DNA from: Emiliania huxleyi CCMP1516
Taxonomy: Eukaryota
Reading direction: 5' to 3'
DNA: 64,000 bases
Assembly: GCF_000372725.1 (NCBI RefSeq)
Contig: NW_005201154.1
Span: 1 to 64,000, forward strand
The notes under the pieces are model-generated. The model was given only the letters and a program-made list of their open reading frames with translations, was not told the DNA's origin and ran no database searches. Of the stretch, positions 15,101 through 58,500 are shown one piece after another (positions within the stretch are counted from its first letter, which is position 1; each line of letters begins with the position of its first letter). Made by a program: the position numbers and the translations under genes.

Positions 15101-15683
15101 GTGTGCCCCCGCGCAACCGCCAACCGGTGCCTAGACCGGTGCCCACGCTGCGGTGTGGCGGTGTGGGAGGTAGGGTGCCCACAGGACCCAAAAGAAAATC
15201 TTTCCCGCTCAAAAAGGGACGCACGAGGCAAATCTGATGTTGGATTGTTCCAATAGGAGCGAGGCCTCTTCCGTTGGGGGGCCGAGTTCATAGGAAACGA
15301 GGGTTTCCCATTGTGACCCGCTCCAGCGCGAGCGTGACACTGCACTTGGCGCCGAGCGCCCGCGGCACGCAGACCTTGTGCAAGCCGTCGCCCTCGGTGC
15401 AAGCACCGGTCCGCCGGACCGGTGGCGCTCGGTGTGGAGCAAGCAAGACCCCCCCCCCCCCCCATCGGCGCGCGCCCGAGGTTTGAACGGCCGCCAGGAG
15501 CACCAAGAGGACTCCTCATGGCTGTGGTCAAGGGGGCTTCGACCGGCCTCGGCTGCCGGGGGGGCGGGTTGTCCCGGCTGCGGACGCGTTCTGCAGCCCC
15601 CTGGGCGTGGGTCAGCACCCCAAAACTGCCCCTCGGCGGCATACAGCACTGCCAGCCAGCCTCTTCCTCCTCCTCAAGGGCTG

Positions 15684-16138
15684 GAGCGGCCGCACATTGC
15701 TCGGTACCCCCCCTGCACATCTAAAGTCATCGCTGCTGCTAGGGGGGGGGGGGCTGACCCCCCCAGCAGCAGAACGCTTCTGCCGGGGGGGGGGGGCCCC
15801 AACCCCCCCGCAGGGGAAAGGTTTTTCTTGGGGGGGGGGGGCCCCCACCCCCCTGGAGGCTAATGGCTCTGTTCAGAATGTGCAGCCACAACCCACTACT
15901 GTGTAGGACTGTGCACGGCAGCACGGGATTNNNNNNNNNNNNNNNNNNNNNNNNNNNNNNNNNNNNNNNNNNNNNNNNNNNNNNNNNNNNNNNNNNNNNN
16001 NNNNNNNNNNNNNNNNNNNNNNNNNNNNNNTCTGTCAGAGATGCCAGCACCCCCCACAGGCAGAGCGCTCCTGCTGGGGGGGGGGTCGGCCATGACTTTA
16101 GATGTGCAGGGGGGGTACCGAGCAGTGTGCGGCCGCTC
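15684..16138. mobile_element. PIF/Harbinger-like non-autonomous TIR element (contains an N-gap)
   Basis: TIR GAGCGGCCGCACATTGCTCGGTACCCCCCTGCACATCTAAAGTCAT with a near-exact reverse complement ending at 16138. CTG flanks both ends (15681-83 and 16139-41), consistent with a 3-bp CWG TSD. Confidence 0.7.
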
Positions 16139-17107
16139 CTGTACTATAGGCCATATTGCGCCGCCTCCTACTGGCAGCCGGGCGGGCGCGCGCCGCGGGC
16201 GCCTCGGCGCGCGCACGGCTCGCAAAGTTCGAACGAGTACTGCCGCCCGGCCGCCTCAAGGCTGCCGGGCGGCAGTACTTGCCTCGCAAGGCGCGCACCG
16301 GCTGCTCTGGCTGCTGCGCCGGCGGCCGCTGCGCTGGCCGCTGCTGCGCCGGCTGGCGGGCGGTACGGCCGCCGGCGGCCGCTGCACCCGCGCCTTCCCT
16401 CGCGGGCGCCGTCGCGACGCGCGCGCCCAACTCTGCTGGTACACGGCACGCCTCGCGTCGTCACACAGCCGCGGAGAACAGGCGGTGCTGTGCGCGAAGC
16501 GCGCGCGATCTCGTACTTTTAAGGCTGGATCTGGCCATTCCAAGGGTATACGGAACCTTTGAGAATCCCCAGCGTCCCTCCTACTTACACTCTCAATGTC
16601 TCGACTCTCCAACACGAAGTGCTGCCATCGGGGGTGGCCCATTTTTTGTGTCCGCAGTTTTTCATTTTAAAGAGGTCCCGAGAGGAAGAACCTCTCTCTG
16701 AAGTCCGAGGCGGTCCCGCCGGCGGACGACAAGAAAGAATGTGAGAGTGGTGATTTCTTGTTGGTTTTCAAAAGAAAATCTCTCTCTCGTTTCTCGACTC
16801 TCGGACGAACGGCTGAGGGCTGACAAGCTGCCGAGCCCAAATCACTGTGAGAGTCGTGATTTCTTGTTGGTTTTCTAAAATCTCTCTCCTCTCTCCCGAA
16901 CGGACGACATTTGTTGGTCTTGGAGCACTTGGAGGTCTTGTTGTGAAATTATGTTGCGAAAAGAATTTTACAAAAGACTCCCTCGCACGACACTGGGCAC
17001 GGGACTGGCGTGCACTGGCACTAACACAGGTACACCACGGGTGCCGGCCTAAGCGACTCCTTGCAAAAAAGAATTCGAAGAGCACGACGCGTTCGAGAGA
17101 TTCACAC

Positions 17108-23063: not shown

Positions 23064-23311
23064 TCCTTCTACTTTCATCTCTGTGAGGAGCTCGCCCGCT
23101 CACTGATCAGGCCAGCCGCGCAAAGGAGGTGGCGAGTAAGGCACGGCTGGCACTCCCGAGGTCTCTTGGGGCAGAGCCCCGGCGAGGCCTCGGGAGAACT
23201 ACCCAATGGGTCCCTCGGAGGGGTACCCTGGGTGGGCGGGGCCTCTACTCGCCAGGCTGCGAGCGGATCTAGTGGCCTGGGAAAAGAATTTTACGACGGG
23301 TGCAAGTCAAC

Positions 23312-24032
23312 ATGGGTGCGAAACAACGACAAGACCAAGGCACGGGCAGAGGAACGAGAGAAGAATATAGGGTGGATAAAGCGCCTGTTCACGGCATGGA
23401 GGGTGAGCCACGCCGAACGTACTGAACGTAGAGCCGAGCGGAAGGAGGACGGGGAAGACGACTCCGAGGAGGACGAACCAGTGGAAATCCCGTTGTCAGC
23501 CGTCACGATGCACCCGAAGGGGACCCCAGCGCCGGCATCATCAGTGAAGGCACAAGTCTCAAGTGTTCGAAGTACGAAGAGAGAGTGGACCTGAGCAACG
23601 ATATGACTTGGAGGCAAATGATCGCAGTGGGCGTCAGAAGACTCGTCCTTGCTCGAGGAGAGCTCGATAGACTCGAGGGGCCAGGATATGCAGCGAGGAG
23701 GACGGAGCTGCGCCGAAAAGGCGCAAGAAGCAGCGAGAACAAGGGACCGGCAGGCGGCGGCGGCGTCGCAGAACGAGGCAGAGGAGAGCGACGCGACAGA
23801 AGAAGAAGCGACAAGGGAAAGAACGACGAGAGTGGGACGACCGCGAGGTGGCATGAAGGTTGCAGCGAGAATCGGCGAGAGACTGCGAAGAGAGATAGGA
23901 AGAGGCGGACGCCCAAGCAAGGGTGGGCGACGGCTAGCGCACCACACCCCTCTCCTTAAAATCCCTGTGTGGTGGCGGCGTGCCGTCCTCCCATCCCTCC
24001 CTTGGGTTGTCCGTTTTCTTTCTTTCTTTAAA
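23312..24032 (+). mobile_element. 5'-truncated LINE, family A
   Basis: Matches the 3' part of 44460-45640 with internal stops or frameshifts. It has a (TTTC)n tail and TSD CAAGTCAAC (23303-11 and 24033-41). A tail-only insert at 24059-24089 has TSD AGCAGAC. Confidence 0.85.
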
Positions 24033-29127: not shown

Positions 29128-30827
29128 TCACCCCTCGACCATGAAGGAGGTGGACTGCACGCCAACCTTGACCTTTGGCCCTCGCAGGCGCGGGTTCTCC
29201 TCCTCCTCGGGCTGCACCTCGGCCGCCCCCGCCTCGAGGAGCAGCCTCGCAACCTCGTCGTGGCCCGCCGCATGCGCCCAGAGCAGCGGCCGCGTTGACG
29301 ACTCGTCCTGCGGGTCCGCCTCGGCGCCTGAAGCGACAGCACCGCGCCGCCTGAGCGAGGCCCGCCTCCACTCTAGCCTCTACGACCGCAGCGTGATCTG
29401 GCCGCCAGCGCTCTCGGCTCTAACTCGGCTCTGCCTAGGCCCAATCTCAGCTACATCTCGGCCACGTCTCGGCCGTGTCTAGATCACGAGATCTCGGCTG
29501 ATCTCGGCTAGGTCTCGGCTCGGGCGCCGGCGTCCAGCAGCGCCTCCACCACCCACGCGTGCCCCTCCCGCGCCGCAAAGTGGAGCGGCGTGCTCCCGTC
29601 CTACCGAGATCTAGCCGAGATCTAGCCGAGATCTAGCCGAGATCTAGCCGAGATCTAGCCGAGATCTAGCCGAGATCTAGCCGAGATCTAGCCGAGATCT
29701 AGCCGAGATCTAGCCGAGACCTAGCCGAGATCTAGCCGAGATCTAGCCGAGATCTAGCCGAGATCTAGCCGAGGTGGAAGTGGCGCGGAGTGCGCCCGTC
29801 CTGCGCTCGCGCGTCCGCCGACGCGTTCGCCGCCAGCAGGTACTGCACCACCACCGAGTGTCCCATCTCCGCCTGCGGGACGTGTCGTGGACGTGTCAGG
29901 GAGCACCGCCGCCGAGCCCAGCCATGCCTCGGCTGCATCTCGGCTGCATCTCGGCTGCATCTCGGCTGCATCTCGGCTGCATCTCGGCTGCATCTCGGCT
30001 GCATCTCGGCTATGTCTCTACCGCGTGGTGCAGCGGCGCGAGCCCGCCCGCCGCCGCGGCGCTCACCGGCGCCCCGTACCTGACACGTCCACGGCACGTC
30101 CATCACACGTCTCGCGTGCGGGGATGGGCCCACCGGCGCGCCGCGCCGCAGCAGTAGCTCCGCGACGGCGGCGTGGCCCTTTCGTGCCGCAACGTGCAGC
30201 GGCGTCGAGCCGTCCGAGGCGCGCGCGTCGATCGTCGCGTTGTGCTCGAGCAGCAAGTCGACGAGGTCCTTGTGCCCGCCTTCCACGGCCGCGTGCAGGG
30301 GCGTGAGGCCCATCCCCGACGGGTGGTTGGCGTTCGGGTCGGCGCCTAACAGCAGAGCTCGTGCAAGGCTCACGGCGGGCTGCGGAGCGGCGCGGGTCGG
30401 CGTTCTGTCGGCGCCGCTCGCGAGCAGCCGTGCGACAACCTCCAGCTGGTTGTTTGCGGCGGCGAATTGCAGGCCGGCGGCCTGTGCACTCGCAGCGGAC
30501 CCGTCACCGGCGGGAGAGACGGAGGGCGTGTGACGGAGGGCGTGTGACGGAGGGCATAACCTGCGAGGCGATGCGGCTATCCGCCAGCTTGGAGCCACCG
30601 GTCTTCTGCGCCACGTACTGCGAGGCGAGCTGCTGCCGAACCTGCGCGCGGAAGCTCTCCGTCAACGACTTGGTCGCCTGCTCAATCTGCCGCAGCTCAT
30701 ACTCGTCCAGCACGCCATCCCCGTTGAGGTCGCCCGCGAGCGGCTCGCCCGCCGCCCCGTGCGGATCGACATAAGCCTGCTGCTGAGCCGAGGCGGCCAC
30801 GACTAGCAAGGCGGTGCGAAGCAGCAT
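29128..30827 (-). CDS. Ankyrin-repeat protein with a signal peptide and an EF-hand-like loop, multi-exon
   Basis: MLLRTALLVVAASAQ, DLNGDGVLDEYE, then TPLHAAVEGGH, TPLHVAARKGH and TPLHFAAREGH repeats. TGA is at 29128-30. Confidence 0.8.
29604..30010. repeat. Two intronic 11-bp tandem arrays
   Basis: (GCCGAGATCTA)n at about 29604-29773 and (CTCGGCTGCAT)n at about 29928-30010. Confidence 0.95.
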
Positions 30828-30897: not shown

Positions 30898-31191
30898 TCA
30901 CAAGGGACCGGCATGCGGCGGCGTCACAGGACGAGGCAGAAGAGAACGACGCGACAGAGGAGGAAATGACAAGGGAGAGAACGACGAGAGTGGGACGACC
31001 GCGAGGTGGCATGAAGGTTGCAGCGAGAAGCGGCGAGAGACTGCGAAGAGAGATAGGAAGAGGCAGACTCCCTAGGGTGGGCGACGGCTAGCGCACCACA
31101 CACCTCTCCTTAAAATCCCTGTGTGGTGGCGGCGTGCCGTCCTCCCATCCCTCCCTTGGGTTGTCTGTTTTCTTTCTTTCTTTCTTTCTTT
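30898..31191 (+). mobile_element. 5'-truncated LINE, family A
   Basis: The ORF tail ...GRLPRVGDG* is followed by the shared 3' UTR and (TTTC)n. TSD ATGCGCATGC lies at 30888-97 and 31192-201. Confidence 0.9.
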
Positions 31192-35078: not shown

Positions 35079-35311
35079 CAGTGGGCGTCAGAAGAGTCGT
35101 CCTTGCGTGAGGAGAGCTCGATAAACTCGAGGGGCCAAAATATGCGCCGCGAGGAGGGCAGAGCTGCGCCGAGCAGCGAGAGAGCAAGGGAGCGGCAGGC
35201 GGCGGCGCCGTCGCAGGACGAGGCAGAGGAGAGCGACGCGACAGAGGAAGAAGCGACAAGAGAGAGAACGACGAGAGTGGGACGACCGCGGGGTGGCATG
35301 AAGGTCGCAGC
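35079..35311 (+). mobile_element. Internal fragment of LINE family A, without a tail
   Basis: Encodes ...SQDEAEESDATEEEATRERTTRVGRPRGGMKVAA, matching the other family A copies. Confidence 0.8.
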
Positions 35312-35555
35312 GTCGCCCCCACCGTTCTCCACCTCCACCCCTCCCCCTCCCCCCCGCCCTACCGAACCACCCACCGCCCACCCACGCCAACTTCCGCCCT
35401 CCCGCCGCCCTCCCCCCTTTCTGCCCCTCCGCCTTCACCATCCCCCATGTGTGCATTCCACTCCGTTCGCTCCCTCCCGCTTGGCGCCCATCCCGCCCTC
35501 CGCCCTCGCCCCCCGCCCCTGTCCTGGCTGGCCTGGGTGGCATAAACTCTCTGGC

Positions 35556-44459: not shown

Positions 44460-45640
44460 GGAATGCAGAGCGTGCAAAGCGGCTAGGGATGAGGCCACAA
44501 AAGAGGCGCGCGAGGCAAGGAGGAGACGCGGGGAACTGAAAGACTGGGACGACTGGAAACAAGAAGACAGTGAGCCACCACAGGCGTCGTTGGCGCACAT
44601 ACTGAGCGGCAGCTGCGCTGGAAATAAGGAAGAGGCGCGTCACTTCATGCGGAAGCTCGACAAACACACAGCGAGGGCGACAGCAAGAGTTGAACGGGAG
44701 GCGCCGGACTCAAAAGACACCGCCACATTCCTGAGACGAGCGAGGGCAGCCTCCTTAAAGGCGAAAGGGTCTAGATTTGGAGCGCTCGCCGAAGAGGAGT
44801 ACGACAAAATAGCGCCCGTGATTGCCTGCACGCTACCCGCACTCACGGACTCCATACCCGAAAGAAAGAGAAGGGAGCTCGCGGGAGAGGTGACGAGTGA
44901 ACTACAGGTAGTGGGGAAGGCAGCCTCGATTGCCATACAGACATGGGTGCGAAACAACGACAAGACCAGGGCACGGGCAGAGGAACGAGAGAAGAATATA
45001 GGGTGGATAAAGCGCCTGTTCACGGCATGGAGGGTGAGCCACGCCGAACGTACCGAGCGGAGAGCCGAGCGGAAGGAGGACGGGGAAGATGACTCCGAGG
45101 AGGACGAACCAGTGGAAATCCAGTTGTCAGATGTCACGATGCATCCGAAGGGGACCCCAGCGCCGGCATCATCCGTAGAGGCACGAGTGTTCGAAGAGAG
45201 AGTGGACCTGAGCAACAACATGACTTGGAGGCAAATGATCGGAGTGGGAGTCAGAAATGTGGTCCTTGCGCGAGGGGAGCTCGATAGACTCGAGGGGCCA
45301 GGATACGCCGCGAGGAGGACGGAGTTGCGCCGAAAGGCGAAAGAAGCCGCGAGAACAAGGGACCGGCAGGCGGCGGCGTCACAGGACGAGGCAGAAGAGA
45401 ACGACGCGACAGAGGAGGAAATGACAAGGGAGAGAACGACGAGAGTGGGACGACCGCGAGGTGGCATGAAGATTGCAGCGAGAATCGGCGAGAGACTGCG
45501 AAGAGAGATAGGAAGAGGCAGACTCCCTAGGGTGGGCGACGGCTAGCGCACCACACACCTCTCCTTAAAATCCCTGTGTGGTGGCGGCGCGCCGTCCTCC
45601 CATCCCTCCCTTGGGTTGTCTGTTTTCTTTCTTTCTTTTT
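44460..45640 (+). mobile_element. Longest 5'-truncated LINE family A copy (ORF2 C terminus)
   Basis: An open frame carries ECRACK...SLAHILSGSC, resembling the CCHC knuckle downstream of LINE RT. The stop is at 45546, followed by the 3' UTR and a (TTTC)n tail. The candidate TSD is TGGGTGTG (44452-59 and 45641-48). Confidence 0.85.
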
Positions 45641-46125
45641 TGGGTGTGAGGTTGCCGACTGCACTCCAAGTTTTAAAAACCGAACAGGCAAGGCCAAGGG
45701 AGAGAAAGAAATCGTAAAGAAATCGTAAATCGCAGAACTCTCTCTCGCAACAACACTTGCACGTACGTACAACCCCCTCTCCCTTCTCTCTCGCTTGCTT
45801 GTAACATACTTGTGGGTTGTTAGGCATTGTGGGGTTGGCACTCCCATCGACCCTGCCTCATGAGGGTCATGACCTCCTGCGGTCTCTGAGATGGACAGCA
45901 GGTGGGTGTGGGACCACAAGCCAGGATACACTCGAAGGCTGGGTAAGCAGTAGAGGTCGACGCGTCCCACATCGTCTGTGTCGCTGTCGGCACGCTGTCG
46001 ACAGGACGTCGAGCGACACCGGTGGCAGTGCCACCCAGGCCAGTGGTCGGGCGGTCTCCCGTCCATGTAGGCATGAGAGAGCCACCATGATCCATGTGGA
46101 TCCGTATGATGATTCCTCTTTCCTG

Positions 46126-46668
46126 GAGCAGGCGCACATCGCTTCCAGGGAGGGGGGCGCGCTTCTCTGCACCCCCCCCCCCGCCAGCGGGGGGCGCGCG
46201 CGCCGGGGGGGGGGGGACCCCCCCCGTCGCCGGGGGGGAAGCGGCGGGGGGGGGGCGNNNNNNNNNNNNNNNNNNNNNNNNNNNNNNNNNNNNNNNNNNN
46301 NNNNNNNNNNNNNNNNNNNNNNNNNNNNNNNNNNNNNNNNNNNNNNNNNNNNNNNNNGGCGAGTTCGTGGTGGCAGTAGGAGCCCTCAGAGCCAGGCGCG
46401 CCATTGCGCGGGCATGCGCGGCGCCACGGGAAGGCGGGGGCCTCGCTGTGGCGGGCGGGGCGGCTGGGGGCCGGCTGCATCGACCGCACGGAGCAGGCGA
46501 GTAGTTCGCGCGTCCCCCCCCCCCCCCCACCATGTGGTGAAGGTGCTGGGGGGGTCGGGCCCCCCCCCCCCAGCATGTGGTGAAGCCTCTGGGGGGGTCG
46601 GACCCCCCCCCTAGCATGTGGTGTGCAGAGAAGCGCGCCCCCCCCCCTGAAGCGATGTGCGCCTGCTC
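46126..46668. mobile_element. PIF/Harbinger-like non-autonomous TIR element (contains an N-gap)
   Basis: TIR GAGCAGGCGCACATCGCTTC...GCGCGCTTCTCTGCAC occurs at both ends and resembles the 15684 TIR. CTG flanks both sides (46123-25 and 46669-71). Confidence 0.7.
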
Positions 46669-46975
46669 CTGACAACCGCCTCAGTCAACTTTCGTCACAG
46701 TTCACCGCTCCTAGCCACGTGTTTCGTCAAGTGTTTTCCCCCCTACCGCCCAGTGCGCTGTGAACCCAGCCACGAAGGCACGGGGGCGACTGGCCGCACC
46801 GCCGGCGCTAGTCGTAGGCTAGTGTTGTGAAGGGTTTGCTTTCCTTTCTTTTTTATACGTAAAGCCGTAACCCGTAAGCAGAAAAGACGACTGGCTCGCC
46901 CGAACTGCACGGGCAGGCACCACAAATGACAAAAAGTCTCAGCCAGCGCATCCGCAAAAGAATGTCTGAATTTCC

Positions 46976-55274: not shown

Positions 55275-55379
55275 ACACACGTTTTGAACTTTCGGCGAGG
55301 TCGTTGTCAGAGAGAGTTGTTGTTGTTGTCGTCGTCACAGCAACCGCTGGCGAGGGAGTCGTCGAGAAGCTGCCTCCAG

Positions 55380-55604
55380 GGTTCCGGCTCCTACCCAGAT
55401 AGGGGGTCTGTCAGACTGGCTGGCCCCTCCCAGATAGGTAGGTAGGTTGGTCTTGTTTGGCCCAAAAGGGCCCTGCAATAGGTAGGTACCCCCTCTTTTC
55501 ATCTTTTTTCGCTTCGCTGCGCGGCCTGGGGATAGGTAGGTAGGTAGGGCGTTTTGGCGCGAGTCAGTCCCAACAGACCCCCTATCCGGGTAGGAGCCGG
55601 AACC
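55380..55604. mobile_element. 225-bp Harbinger/Tourist-like MITE
   Basis: 32-bp TIRs GGTTCCGGCTCCTACCC(A/G)GATAGGGGGTCTGT with CAG on both flanks (55377-79 and 55605-07). Confidence 0.85.
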
Positions 55605-55789
55605 CAGGGCCGCCTCAAGGGCAACGCAGGTCGATTTCTTTTTCACTATTTCACTTTTGGTTATAGCAGATCAAGGCAGAGAGAGAGATTTTGTTGTTGT
55701 CAAGGCACAGAGCTCACACAAATCACAGGTGGACTGTGATCTGTGTGACTCCTCGGGGTTTCTGGCGACTCTTGACGTAGTCGGTCGGT

Positions 55790-55965: not shown

Positions 55966-56013
55966 CGCGGAGAGGGCTGGGCACAGGGCACAGGGATCTC
56001 TCTCGCATAGGAT

Positions 56014-57206
56014 CGTCTGAACCACACGTGTCCCTCCATTCACACTCTCCCAGTCCTTCCTGGTCTAGTGCCCGTCTTCTCCGCCCGTCGTGCTGAGTTG
56101 GTCGCACCTTCGTGCTTTCTTCGTCCTTCAGACGTTTCACCTAGAGCAAGCAGGGCGGAGCGCCCCTTGGTCCACCCGCCGCCCGGGTGGGGCTTGCACG
56201 TGGCAGCGACTCGACTGGTCGCGTCAGCCCCTTTGTGAAGCCCGACACGCTATCCACTGCTCAGGCCATGCCTGACACGCCCACCAAAGCCTTGGAGTAT
56301 TCCGAAATTCGGGATCTCCTACATGGCGCTAAACAAGAAGCTGATGCAATGGTGACGGAATGCAGTTTCGACCGTGCCGCCGCCCTCGACGGGCTTGCGG
56401 CGAACCTGGCCACTCTTCTCGAGTGGAGCCGACTGCATCACAACGATGGCATCGGTTTCTTCCTCATTACGAATGGCGCTGTCTACATAGACAACATTGC
56501 GCCCACTGTTTGCTGCACCCAACACGATGCGGTGCGCTGCGCGCGCTACGAGCTGAAGCTGCTCAAGACGCGTGACTTTGCCGACTTGCTCGAGTTCGTC
56601 GCCGATGACAGTCAGTCACCCACCGCCGATGATTTTGCGCAGGTCGGAACTGTCCACAAGACGTCTTCATCCGCGAGGCCATCGAGGAAGCCAAGATCTG
56701 TGTTCCTTTCGTCCGCAGCGACGAGAACCTTGCCGACTTCTTCACGAAGCCGCTCAAACCCCAGCGCTTCTTCGAGCTGCGGGACAAGATCATGAATGTC
56801 AAGGAGCCTTCCTCCCAGTCGGATGGGAAGTGAATCTCCGTCACCGATCCGTCACCGAGACGGAGCGCGGGCGCCGGCCGCGAGCGCGAACAGTGCCGCC
56901 CCGCCCCCACCCGCGAGAGCCATAGACTCTCCAGTGCATGTCATCCAGTCCATGCCCCGTCGAGAGGGACACTCTCCTCTCTATCCATGTGAGTGACTCG
57001 ACTACGTCGAGGGGGGGGACGTCTGAACCACACGTGTCCCTCCATTCACACTCTCCCAGTCCTTCCTGGTCTAGTGCCCGTCTTCTCCGCCCGTCGTGCT
57101 GAGTTGGTCGCACCTTCGTGCTTTCTTCGTCCTTCAGACGTTTCACCTAGAGCAAGCAGGGCGGAGCGCCCCTTGGTCCACCCGCCACCCGGGTGGGGCT
57201 TGCACG
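56014..57206 (+). mobile_element. Internally deleted Ty1/copia LTR retrotransposon (TRIM-like) with CG...CG termini
   Basis: LTRs at 56014-56200 and 57020-57206 are 187 bp with one mismatch seen. The 5-bp TSD AGGAT lies at 56009-13 and 57207-11. A TGG-initial PBS starts at 56201 and a purine tract is at 57009-19. The RNase H tail FIREAIEE...ENLADFFTKPL lies at 56666-56833. Confidence 0.95.
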
Positions 57207-57246
57207 AGGATATGCACTCGGCGGCACGAGGGCAAGGCTGCGGACA

Positions 57247-57420
57247 CAAAGAAAGAAAGAAAACAGACAACCCAAGGCGCAAGGGAGGGATGGCGCGGAT
57301 GGGAGGACGGCACGCCGCCACCACACAGGGATTTTAAGGAGAGGAGTGTGGTGCTAGCCGTCGCCCACCCTAGGGAGTCTGCCTCTTCCTATCTCTCTTC
57401 GCAGTCTCTCGCCGCTTCTC
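57247..57420 (-). mobile_element. 5'-truncated LINE, family A
   Basis: Reverse complement of the ...PRVGDG* 3' end with its tail. TSD GCTGCGGACA lies at 57237-46 and 57421-30. Confidence 0.9.
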
Positions 57421-57475
57421 GCTGCGGACAAACCAAACAACCCCGAAGTTTCTTTACTCGCGCCAACCAATTGCC

Positions 57476-58500
57476 ATGGCATACTTCGCGCTCAGCTCTC
57501 TCGCGCTCAAGCTGCCTGCCGCCCCGCCTACCGGCGCCGTCGTCGGCCGCGCCCTCGCCGTCGCCGGACCGCTCGCCGCGCCGTCCGCGGTGCACGCCTC
57601 GACGGCGGCCGCCGCCTCAACCCTCGCGCTCGCCGAGATCGACTGGTCGTACGAGCTGAACAGACCGCCGATTATTCTGTCGCCCTTCGAGGTGACGCCG
57701 GTCGGCTGGACGCTCGCCGCGCTCTACGTCGGCTGGTTCTCCTGGTCCATCTTCCGGCCGCAGTCCGAGGCCGAGGCGGCGGCGTGGGAGAAGCAGGAGG
57801 CGGCGGCGTCCGAGATGGCGGCCGCAGCGGGCGCCTTCCTGCGCGAGGCGTCTGCCGAGGAGGGGGCGACGACGAGCGCCTCGGGCCTCGTCTTCAAGAG
57901 CCATGCCGAGGGCGAAGGCGCTTGCCCGACGATGGAGGACACGGTGGTTGTGCAGTACAAGGGCTCGCTCGCCGACGGCACCGTCTTCGACTCGTCGTAC
58001 GACCGCGAAAAGCCGACCGAGTTCAAGCTCAAGCAAGTGATCAAGGGGTGGGGCGAGGGGCTGCAGCGCATGCGGCCCGGCGGGAAGGCGGCGCTTCCTA
58101 GACACTTCCTACGCCGCCTCTGGCTCACACCTCCGGAACAGGCGACGCTCACCGCCCCAGATTACCCGAGATTACCCGAGATTAGGCGACGCTCACCATC
58201 CCGGCAGACCTCGCCTACGGACCGATGGGCGCGCCACCAACCATCCCGGGCAACGCCGCGCTGCGCTTCGAGGCGCGCCGCGGCAGTCCTGCCACCCCCG
58301 CCTCACCCCCGACCACTCCCCTCCCCCCGGGGCCACGTCTCGTGCGCTGTCACATCGGGCCGCTCCTCGGTCGCACGTGCGAGGGGCGGAGGCGTCGCGG
58401 CGTCGGGTCCCCTCCCTCGAGCCCCCTCCCCCCCCCCCTCCCCCCCTTCAAGGTCGAGCTGCTCGAGGTCAAGGAGAAGTCGGGCTTCTCCCTCTTTTAG
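57476..58500 (+). CDS. FKBP-type peptidyl-prolyl isomerase with a targeting or TM leader, two GC-AG introns
   Basis: SASGLVF...VVVQYKGSLADGTVFDSSY...QVIKGW.EGLQ.M.PGGK|ATLTIPADLAYG....PPTIPGNA.L.FE|VELL. Confidence 0.92.

Follow-up and report, generated by a model that had tools for sequence, protein, structure and literature searches.

The window analyzed here, the first 64,000 nucleotides of Emiliania huxleyi CCMP1516 contig NW_005201154.1 (assembly GCF_000372725.1), carries a short long terminal repeat (LTR) element on its forward strand at positions 56,014–57,206. Its two 187-bp LTRs (5′ LTR, 56,014–56,200; 3′ LTR, 57,020–57,206; both + strand) read CGTCTG...GCACG and differ by one mismatch in 187 bp (G/A at LTR position 168). 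The PBS-like sequence TGGCAGCG (56,201–56,210, + strand) follows the 5′ LTR with no spacer and starts at the same point in loci L001, L005, L012, and L015 described below; a polypurine tract (57,009–57,019, + strand) adjoins the 3′ LTR, as it does in L001, L010, L015, L016, and L017. A 5-bp target-site duplication, AGGAT, encloses the element (left copy, 56,009–56,013; right copy, 57,207–57,211; both + strand). Since the bases immediately flanking the LTR repeats are unlike on either side (T/A and T/A), the LTR boundaries are fixed. An earlier note on this DNA had described the CGTCTG...GCACG repeats, and the duplication, the abutting PBS, and the purine tract all agree with that description.

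Between the LTRs, a gag-position frame of an ATG plus 131 residues (56,268–56,663, + strand) forms an N-terminal remnant cut by a deletion, with 72% identity to gag residues 1–131 of L001. A C-terminal RNase H remnant (56,664–56,833, + strand), out of frame with gag, retains the last 54 residues and the stop codon and is 96% identical to L001 pol residues 1588–1641. Neither remnant gave a Pfam match. The motif GACTCGACT occurs just after the PBS (56,209–56,222) and again just before the purine tract (56,994–57,010), where it forms a small hairpin; the two copies could allow the two ends of the RNA to pair. The 3′ motif is also present in a different family of run X4. A search for tRNA genes found none in the window or in 18 loci.

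The terminal CG was examined on assembled contigs, not raw reads, as was the empty site. Contigs from three independent runs (X2, X7, and X1) proceed from the left flank into a single AGGAT, the joint in X1 connecting 56,013 to 57,214. Because this pre-insertion site has no CG, the terminal CG is not target DNA. Contigs with zero differences cover it on the left (X3 record 16, X10 record 2, and X11 record 8) and on the right (X7 record 27 and X11 record 14), so the miscalled bases that the earlier note had considered as a possible undoing of its reading do not apply: independent runs read the same CG. The AGGAT duplication lies directly after the LTR end, and the strand joined to the target therefore finishes in CG-3′.

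To tabulate the termini of other copies, we scanned metagenome contigs with LTR positions 4–28 and obtained 17 loci. The ends were not selected by a pattern placed in this way, and the right-end motif used for scoring ended two bases short of the LTR tip. With the window LTRs included, the left end is CG in 18 of 19 cases (GG in L004) and TG in none, with 11 distinct genomic 5′ flanks, and the right end is TGCACG in all 12 complete LTRs and CA in none, with 6 distinct genomic 3′ flanks. The right end is missing in seven loci, L002 begins at a contig edge, and L006 and L007 are one site. Internal indels bring the LTRs to lengths between 128 and 326 bp, both ends staying constant (L016, L005, L010, and L001). 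The CG termini are accordingly family-wide, with no TG...CA copy among the 17 metagenome loci. They are also common to one distant clade member (see below), which upholds the claim that they are older than this insertion. The 5-bp duplication rests on the insertion in the window, the only locus at which a single insertion is seen with both its ends; the two genomic flanks of L014 do not match each other (a recombinant or a chimeric contig).

The flanks of several metagenome loci are 79–100% alike to repeats of the window, and those of L009 and L003 agree with window paralogues until the LTR begins (one base beyond that point in L003). Visual inspection of the flanks revealed no target-site consensus. 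An artefactual origin of the CG ends, through sequencing or assembly error or through a target-derived CG beside shorter LTRs, might be suspected given that high-copy repeats flank the element and that four N gaps interrupt the window. It is ruled out for practical purposes by the CG-free empty site, by the concordance of the 17 loci and the independent runs, and by the internal purine-tract and PBS junctions, which also carry CG; we give it virtually no credence.

The elements show no CpG depletion (observed/expected 1.09–1.23), and the tips show no deamination decay (CG to TG or CA) among the 12 complete LTRs. Eight of 13 other CpGs in the LTRs are also invariant, so the conservation of the tips shows no special constraint. 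RNA runs X10 and X11 contain contigs of the element, which does not in itself demonstrate transcription. Scans of viral contigs revealed no relative of the element, and a first scan of genome contigs gave no match. Three further loci (L018–L020), found with a purine-tract pattern one base short of the family's tract, were unrelated to the family and were set aside.

The full-length partner that the earlier note had predicted was recovered as L001, which is 83–84% identical to the window element and carries pol, a purine tract, an LTR, a PBS, and an open gag-position frame. Its pol contains, in order, protease, integrase, reverse transcriptase (RT; RVT_2, PF07727, E 1.3e-23), and RNase H, with an SH3 match (E 9.7e-10); this PR-IN-RT-RH order identifies the element as copia, as had been proposed. 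The features of Ty1/copia elements (Pseudoviridae) are thus present, namely the pol order, RVT_2, LTRs with PBS and purine tract, and a duplication within 4–6 bp (one insertion), and the termini depart from TG...CA, which is usual in the group but not defining. Both L001 and the distant relative L021 come from metagenome or MAG assemblies, and their LTR stands in mid-contig (a tandem or collapsed assembly). The partner is at least 11 kb, long for copia. Its gag-position frame (L001:1–4869, − strand) exceeds 1600 residues, about 1150 of them after a CCHC zinc knuckle (CX2CX9HX4C, gag residues 420–438; the spacing differs in L021), and an additional open frame of 350 residues (L001:10084–11133, − strand) lies ahead of pol; neither this frame nor gag had a Pfam match. 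With the ends, the duplication at this site, the family-wide conservation, and the copia partner all observed directly, we consider it highly probable that the element belongs, as an internally deleted copy, to a Ty1/copia family with CG...CG LTRs, whose integrase would join blunt ACG-3′ ends with a 5-bp stagger.

Relative to the partner, the window copy has lost about 10 kb or more internally, at a junction (56,663/56,664) that lacks microhomology. The earlier note held that this derivative must have been mobilized in trans. Such a history, in which the 1.2-kb form belongs to a mobile non-autonomous (TRIM-like) family moved by the full-length partner, is compatible with the retained LTRs, PBS, and purine tract, with LTRs differing at 1 of 187 positions, and with the existence of further derivatives (L010, L015, and an X4 contig that skips from 56,208 to 56,709). 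The abundance of TRIM/LARD elements in the haptophyte Phaeocystis (PMC12480563) also counts in its favor. However, no locus among the 17 and no contig among those listed from seven runs spans the junction, a weak objection since rare variants are lost from contigs, and the window contains no further copy of the element. Near-identical contigs (0–5 differences) continue past 56,663 into gag and carry RNase H upstream of 56,664, and this too, like the missing microhomology, speaks weakly against the TRIM-like form. Mobilization in trans is therefore conceivable, though we lean somewhat against it, and the word "must" goes too far for a junction seen only once among these loci and listed contigs; the deletion may instead date from during or after this single insertion.

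RT relatives separate by score into a near group of about 63 proteins, with E below 1e-84, and a remoter one with E above 1e-56, and PF07727 was present in 120 of 120 relatives among the matches listed. In a tree of 131 RT segments, in which unnamed or automatically named copia proteins served as the outgroup and which covers neither Ty1 nor Drosophila copia nor diatom CoDi, 73 rows fell on one branch with an SH-aLRT of 97 (quick search); FastTree support was 100 after removal of 12 long branches. Placed in a copia tree, as the earlier note had advised, the partner RT thus belongs to a distinct clade of 73 proteins.

One distant clade member, L021, has an RT-RH identity of 39%, the same PR-IN-RT-RH order, and an LTR with no significant similarity to that of the focal family. 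It reads purine tract, CGTCAG...TCCACG, and then TGGTAGCG, the last standing at the place of the PBS. The PBS of Ty1 likewise abuts its LTR and is of the same iMet type as that of L021. A third LTR start was seen in an X10 contig, where a purine tract is followed by CGTC and then by different sequence. L021 comes from a contig in a Planctomycete (bacterial) MAG and is present in run X3 too; it is a GC-rich, eukaryote-type copia element, and proteins P0318, P0329, and P0397 are also labeled as prokaryotic MAG proteins, which makes contamination of these MAGs likely.

These data bear on whether the CG ends are peculiar to a single young family, with L021 being a chance match or a misread boundary and the rest of the clade ordinary. 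Only two families of the 73-row clade have LTRs known at both ends, and the ends of L021 are placed without a duplication, from its PBS and purine tract; its right end could alternatively be CA followed by a 2-nt spacer. Against that reading of the clade, the 8-base match at the PBS and purine-tract boundaries has a chance of about 4e-5 at 66% GC, still under 1e-3 when slack in the boundaries is allowed; the X10 contig adds the third CGTC start, and the integrase loop change described next is clade-wide. We therefore regard a single-family origin as improbable. The wider clade probably has CG ends in common, a judgment from two distant families that goes no further because the ends of L021 are not fixed by a duplication.

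Inspection of the integrase residues that would contact the DNA end revealed a difference in the active-site loop. The best solved relative of the clade integrase profile is Ty1 integrase (7z0h, E 1.3e-14), which sets the register with retroviral integrases. Loops were found in 50 of 66 clade proteins and 42 of 56 outgroup proteins examined. Seven residues before the catalytic Glu, His occupies 46 of 50 clade loops, whereas Pro occupies 37 of 42 outgroup loops. The N155-equivalent position is Ile in 49 of 50 clade loops versus Asn in 28 of 42 in the outgroup. Among the outgroup proteins, one has His and seven have Ile, which speaks against a simple rule. Ty1 resembles the clade in missing the loop Pro, but has Ser there, not His, and no methyltransferase domain of the kind described below. 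Ty1 ends are TG...CA; together with the outgroup His, this means that loss of Pro alone does not entail CG. As related proteins share traits, the His change counts as one event and not as 46. In prototype foamy virus (PFV), two structural reports place this region at the DNA end: Pro214–Gly218 stack against the terminal adenine (PMC6784120), and the path of the scissile dinucleotide leads over Pro214 (PMC3395085). Since the PFV residue contacts both, the His at the equivalent position would fit recognition of a terminal G and loss of trimming alike, and we put it forward as a tentative candidate for the determinant of CG-3′ ends.

Among retroviral and LTR integrases, joining through a CA-3′ end is nearly universal. 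In the mechanism that we favor, priming of reverse transcription at the PBS and purine tract, both of which abut the LTRs, would produce a flush CG...CG cDNA: with no spacer at either site, the cDNA ends are probably flush and joined without trimming. The integrase would then join the ACG-3′ of each strand to target positions five bases apart. A change from CA-3′ to CG-3′ would retain the penultimate C and the terminal purine, and it appears to coincide with the clade-wide replacement of the active-site-loop Pro by His, to which we would attribute a role.

Alternatively, the boundary may have shifted, with the integrase still reading a CA-like step at −4/−3, trimming lost, and the former 2-nt CG overhang now joined. 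In both families, CA-CG stands directly ahead of the PBS, which is the geometry of an untrimmed retroviral-type end; Ty1, also without the Pro, is not known to trim its ends. The residue altered here is the one that the scissile dinucleotide crosses in PFV (PMC3395085). Such a shift is nevertheless at odds with the left end, which is CG-TC and not CG-TG in both families, so that the bottom strand finishes GA-CG, and a CG kept at both tips of two LTRs that cannot be aligned is unexpected for a neutral spacer. The left CG-TC and the conserved tips argue against a shifted boundary, which we consider rather unlikely; the joined end would in any case still be CG-3′.

An integrase that joins CG-3′ ends, as the earlier note had deduced, is thus supported by the position of the duplication, but it is not unprecedented. 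Troyka elements have 5′-CG...CG-3′ LTR ends across their lineage (Kojima 2025; PMC12440569). The present family resembles Troyka in its CG...CG ends, short LTRs (100–400 bp in Troyka), and non-autonomous derivatives, and the L001 knuckle, CX2CX9HX4C, falls within the distinctive CX2CX8-10HX4C of Troyka. Troyka, which the same paper separates from copia, has the gypsy order RP-RT-RH-IN, 3-bp duplications, CGCCA...TGGCG consensus ends, and animal hosts (PMC12440569), in contrast to the PR-IN-RT-RH order, RVT_2, 5-bp duplication, CGTC...CACG ends, algal host, and methyltransferase-fold domain found here. When the family is compared with the defining features of Troyka, it therefore shares the CG...CG termini and lacks the 3-bp duplication and the RP-RT-RH-IN order. 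Since Troyka is already CG...CG and unrelated, the CG ends of this copia clade are probably a second, convergent origin.

Other copia elements with non-canonical ends differ in kind. In published surveys, the first base of plant non-TGCA copia elements (Tos17, AtRE1, and TARE1) is reported as always T (PMC9804982; 10.1101/137141), and the LTR ends of lotus copia finish in A or T (PMC9804982). These elements share with the present family short LTRs, inherited non-canonical ends, and continued transposition; here, unlike in those plants, the LTRs start with C and finish with G, symmetrically, and these ends are apparently fixed across distant families. Diatom copia families CoDi3.2, 4.2, and 4.3 likewise are algal and are reported to lack TG/CA ends (PMC2806351). 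No published CG-ended copia was found in the literature searched, of which coverage was partial and outside which Repbase lies. The claim that TG...CA-based LTR finders would miss such elements holds for motif-bound settings and not beyond those (bioRxiv 10.1101/137141); annotation bound to the motif would thus overlook the family in an alga that is abundant worldwide. The clade would provide a second natural experiment on CG-3′ joining, separate from Troyka and with a named residue (His for Pro), through which the question of why integrases need CA becomes directly testable.

The pol of L001 also carries a 280-residue domain between integrase and RT (L001:7679–8521, − strand). This insert is present in 68 of 73 clade rows, in 2 rows outside the clade, and in 0 of 56 outgroup rows, and it has 434 relatives among representatives at 50% identity. 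Scanning 35 long relatives identified copia-type domains in 23, gypsy-type domains in 1, and PF00145 in none. By sequence, the insert had no match in the PDB, and its profile gave only a weak DNMT2 match (E 0.65–1.1). Its predicted structure (pLDDT 91) was more informative: the Foldseek matches listed at E≤0.001 were all C5-methyltransferases (E 1e-4 to 9e-4, TM 0.3–0.35), and comparison with DNMT3B gave a Z of 11.1 and an rmsd of 3.9 over 200 aligned residues. The nearest named Atlas cluster was PF00145 at 0.88, which we treat as a lead only. Residues of motifs I (FxG), IV (PC), and VI (ENx) are widely kept among 62 clade domains (F in 53 and G in 55; P in 56 and the catalytic C in 59; the catalytic E in 59 and N in 52), L001 itself deviating with KC for PC and EHP for ENP. 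The insert is thus predicted from its modeled structure to be a C5-cytosine-methyltransferase-fold domain, one that Pfam missed although 68 of 73 clade proteins bear it (0 matches among those scanned).

Several DNMTs have been reported in retrotransposon pol, among them SymbioLINE-Dnmt, SymbioDIRS-Dnmt3, and KnitGypsy-Dnmt3, and Symbiodinium copia is without a DNMT according to the same report (PMC5890265); DNMT3 in Copia is mentioned in another (PMC12344493). The present insert resembles these in being a C5 domain in pol, but differs in its copia context, its place in the integrase–RT interval, and the absence of a PF00145 match. A methyltransferase fold was also seen in the gypsy-type polyprotein P0040 and, outside the clade, in copia proteins P0019 and P0026, and about ten long insert-bearing proteins have no Pfam match at all; this distribution suggests several captures.

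By prediction, the domain would methylate the element's own DNA, and nothing observed here links it to the CG tips. Heavy linker methylation in E. huxleyi has been associated with DNMT5 (PMC9998398). As a speculation to which we assign very little likelihood, the methyltransferase would mark CpG on its own cDNA, including the tips, and the His-loop integrase would select CG or methyl-CG ends. If true, this would amount to epigenetic self-licensing of integration and to an end-recognition code that evolved independently of Troyka. Five neighboring clade members without the methyltransferase domain (P0324, P0331, P0337, P0341, and P0346) keep the His loop and constitute a natural control for its coupling with CG ends.

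The surroundings of the element in the window are rich in other repeats. A gene for an FKBP-type peptidyl-prolyl isomerase (57,374–58,150), matching an E. huxleyi protein at 99% identity across 67% of the query, begins about 270 bases downstream of the element. Together with the flank similarity of the metagenome loci, this points to E. huxleyi, or a very near Gephyrocapsa, as the likely host. A very high-copy repeat with a (TTTC)n tail recurs at 23,310–24,029, 30,900–31,186, 35,079–35,312, 44,941–45,638, and 57,248–57,425; the LTR of L003 sits inside one copy of this repeat, and the focal element lies 40 bases from another. Short MITE-like elements with terminal inverted repeats were found at 55,373–55,608, 15,683–16,139, 46,125–46,669, and 29,412–29,773, two of the four starting with GGAGC and ending with GCTCC.
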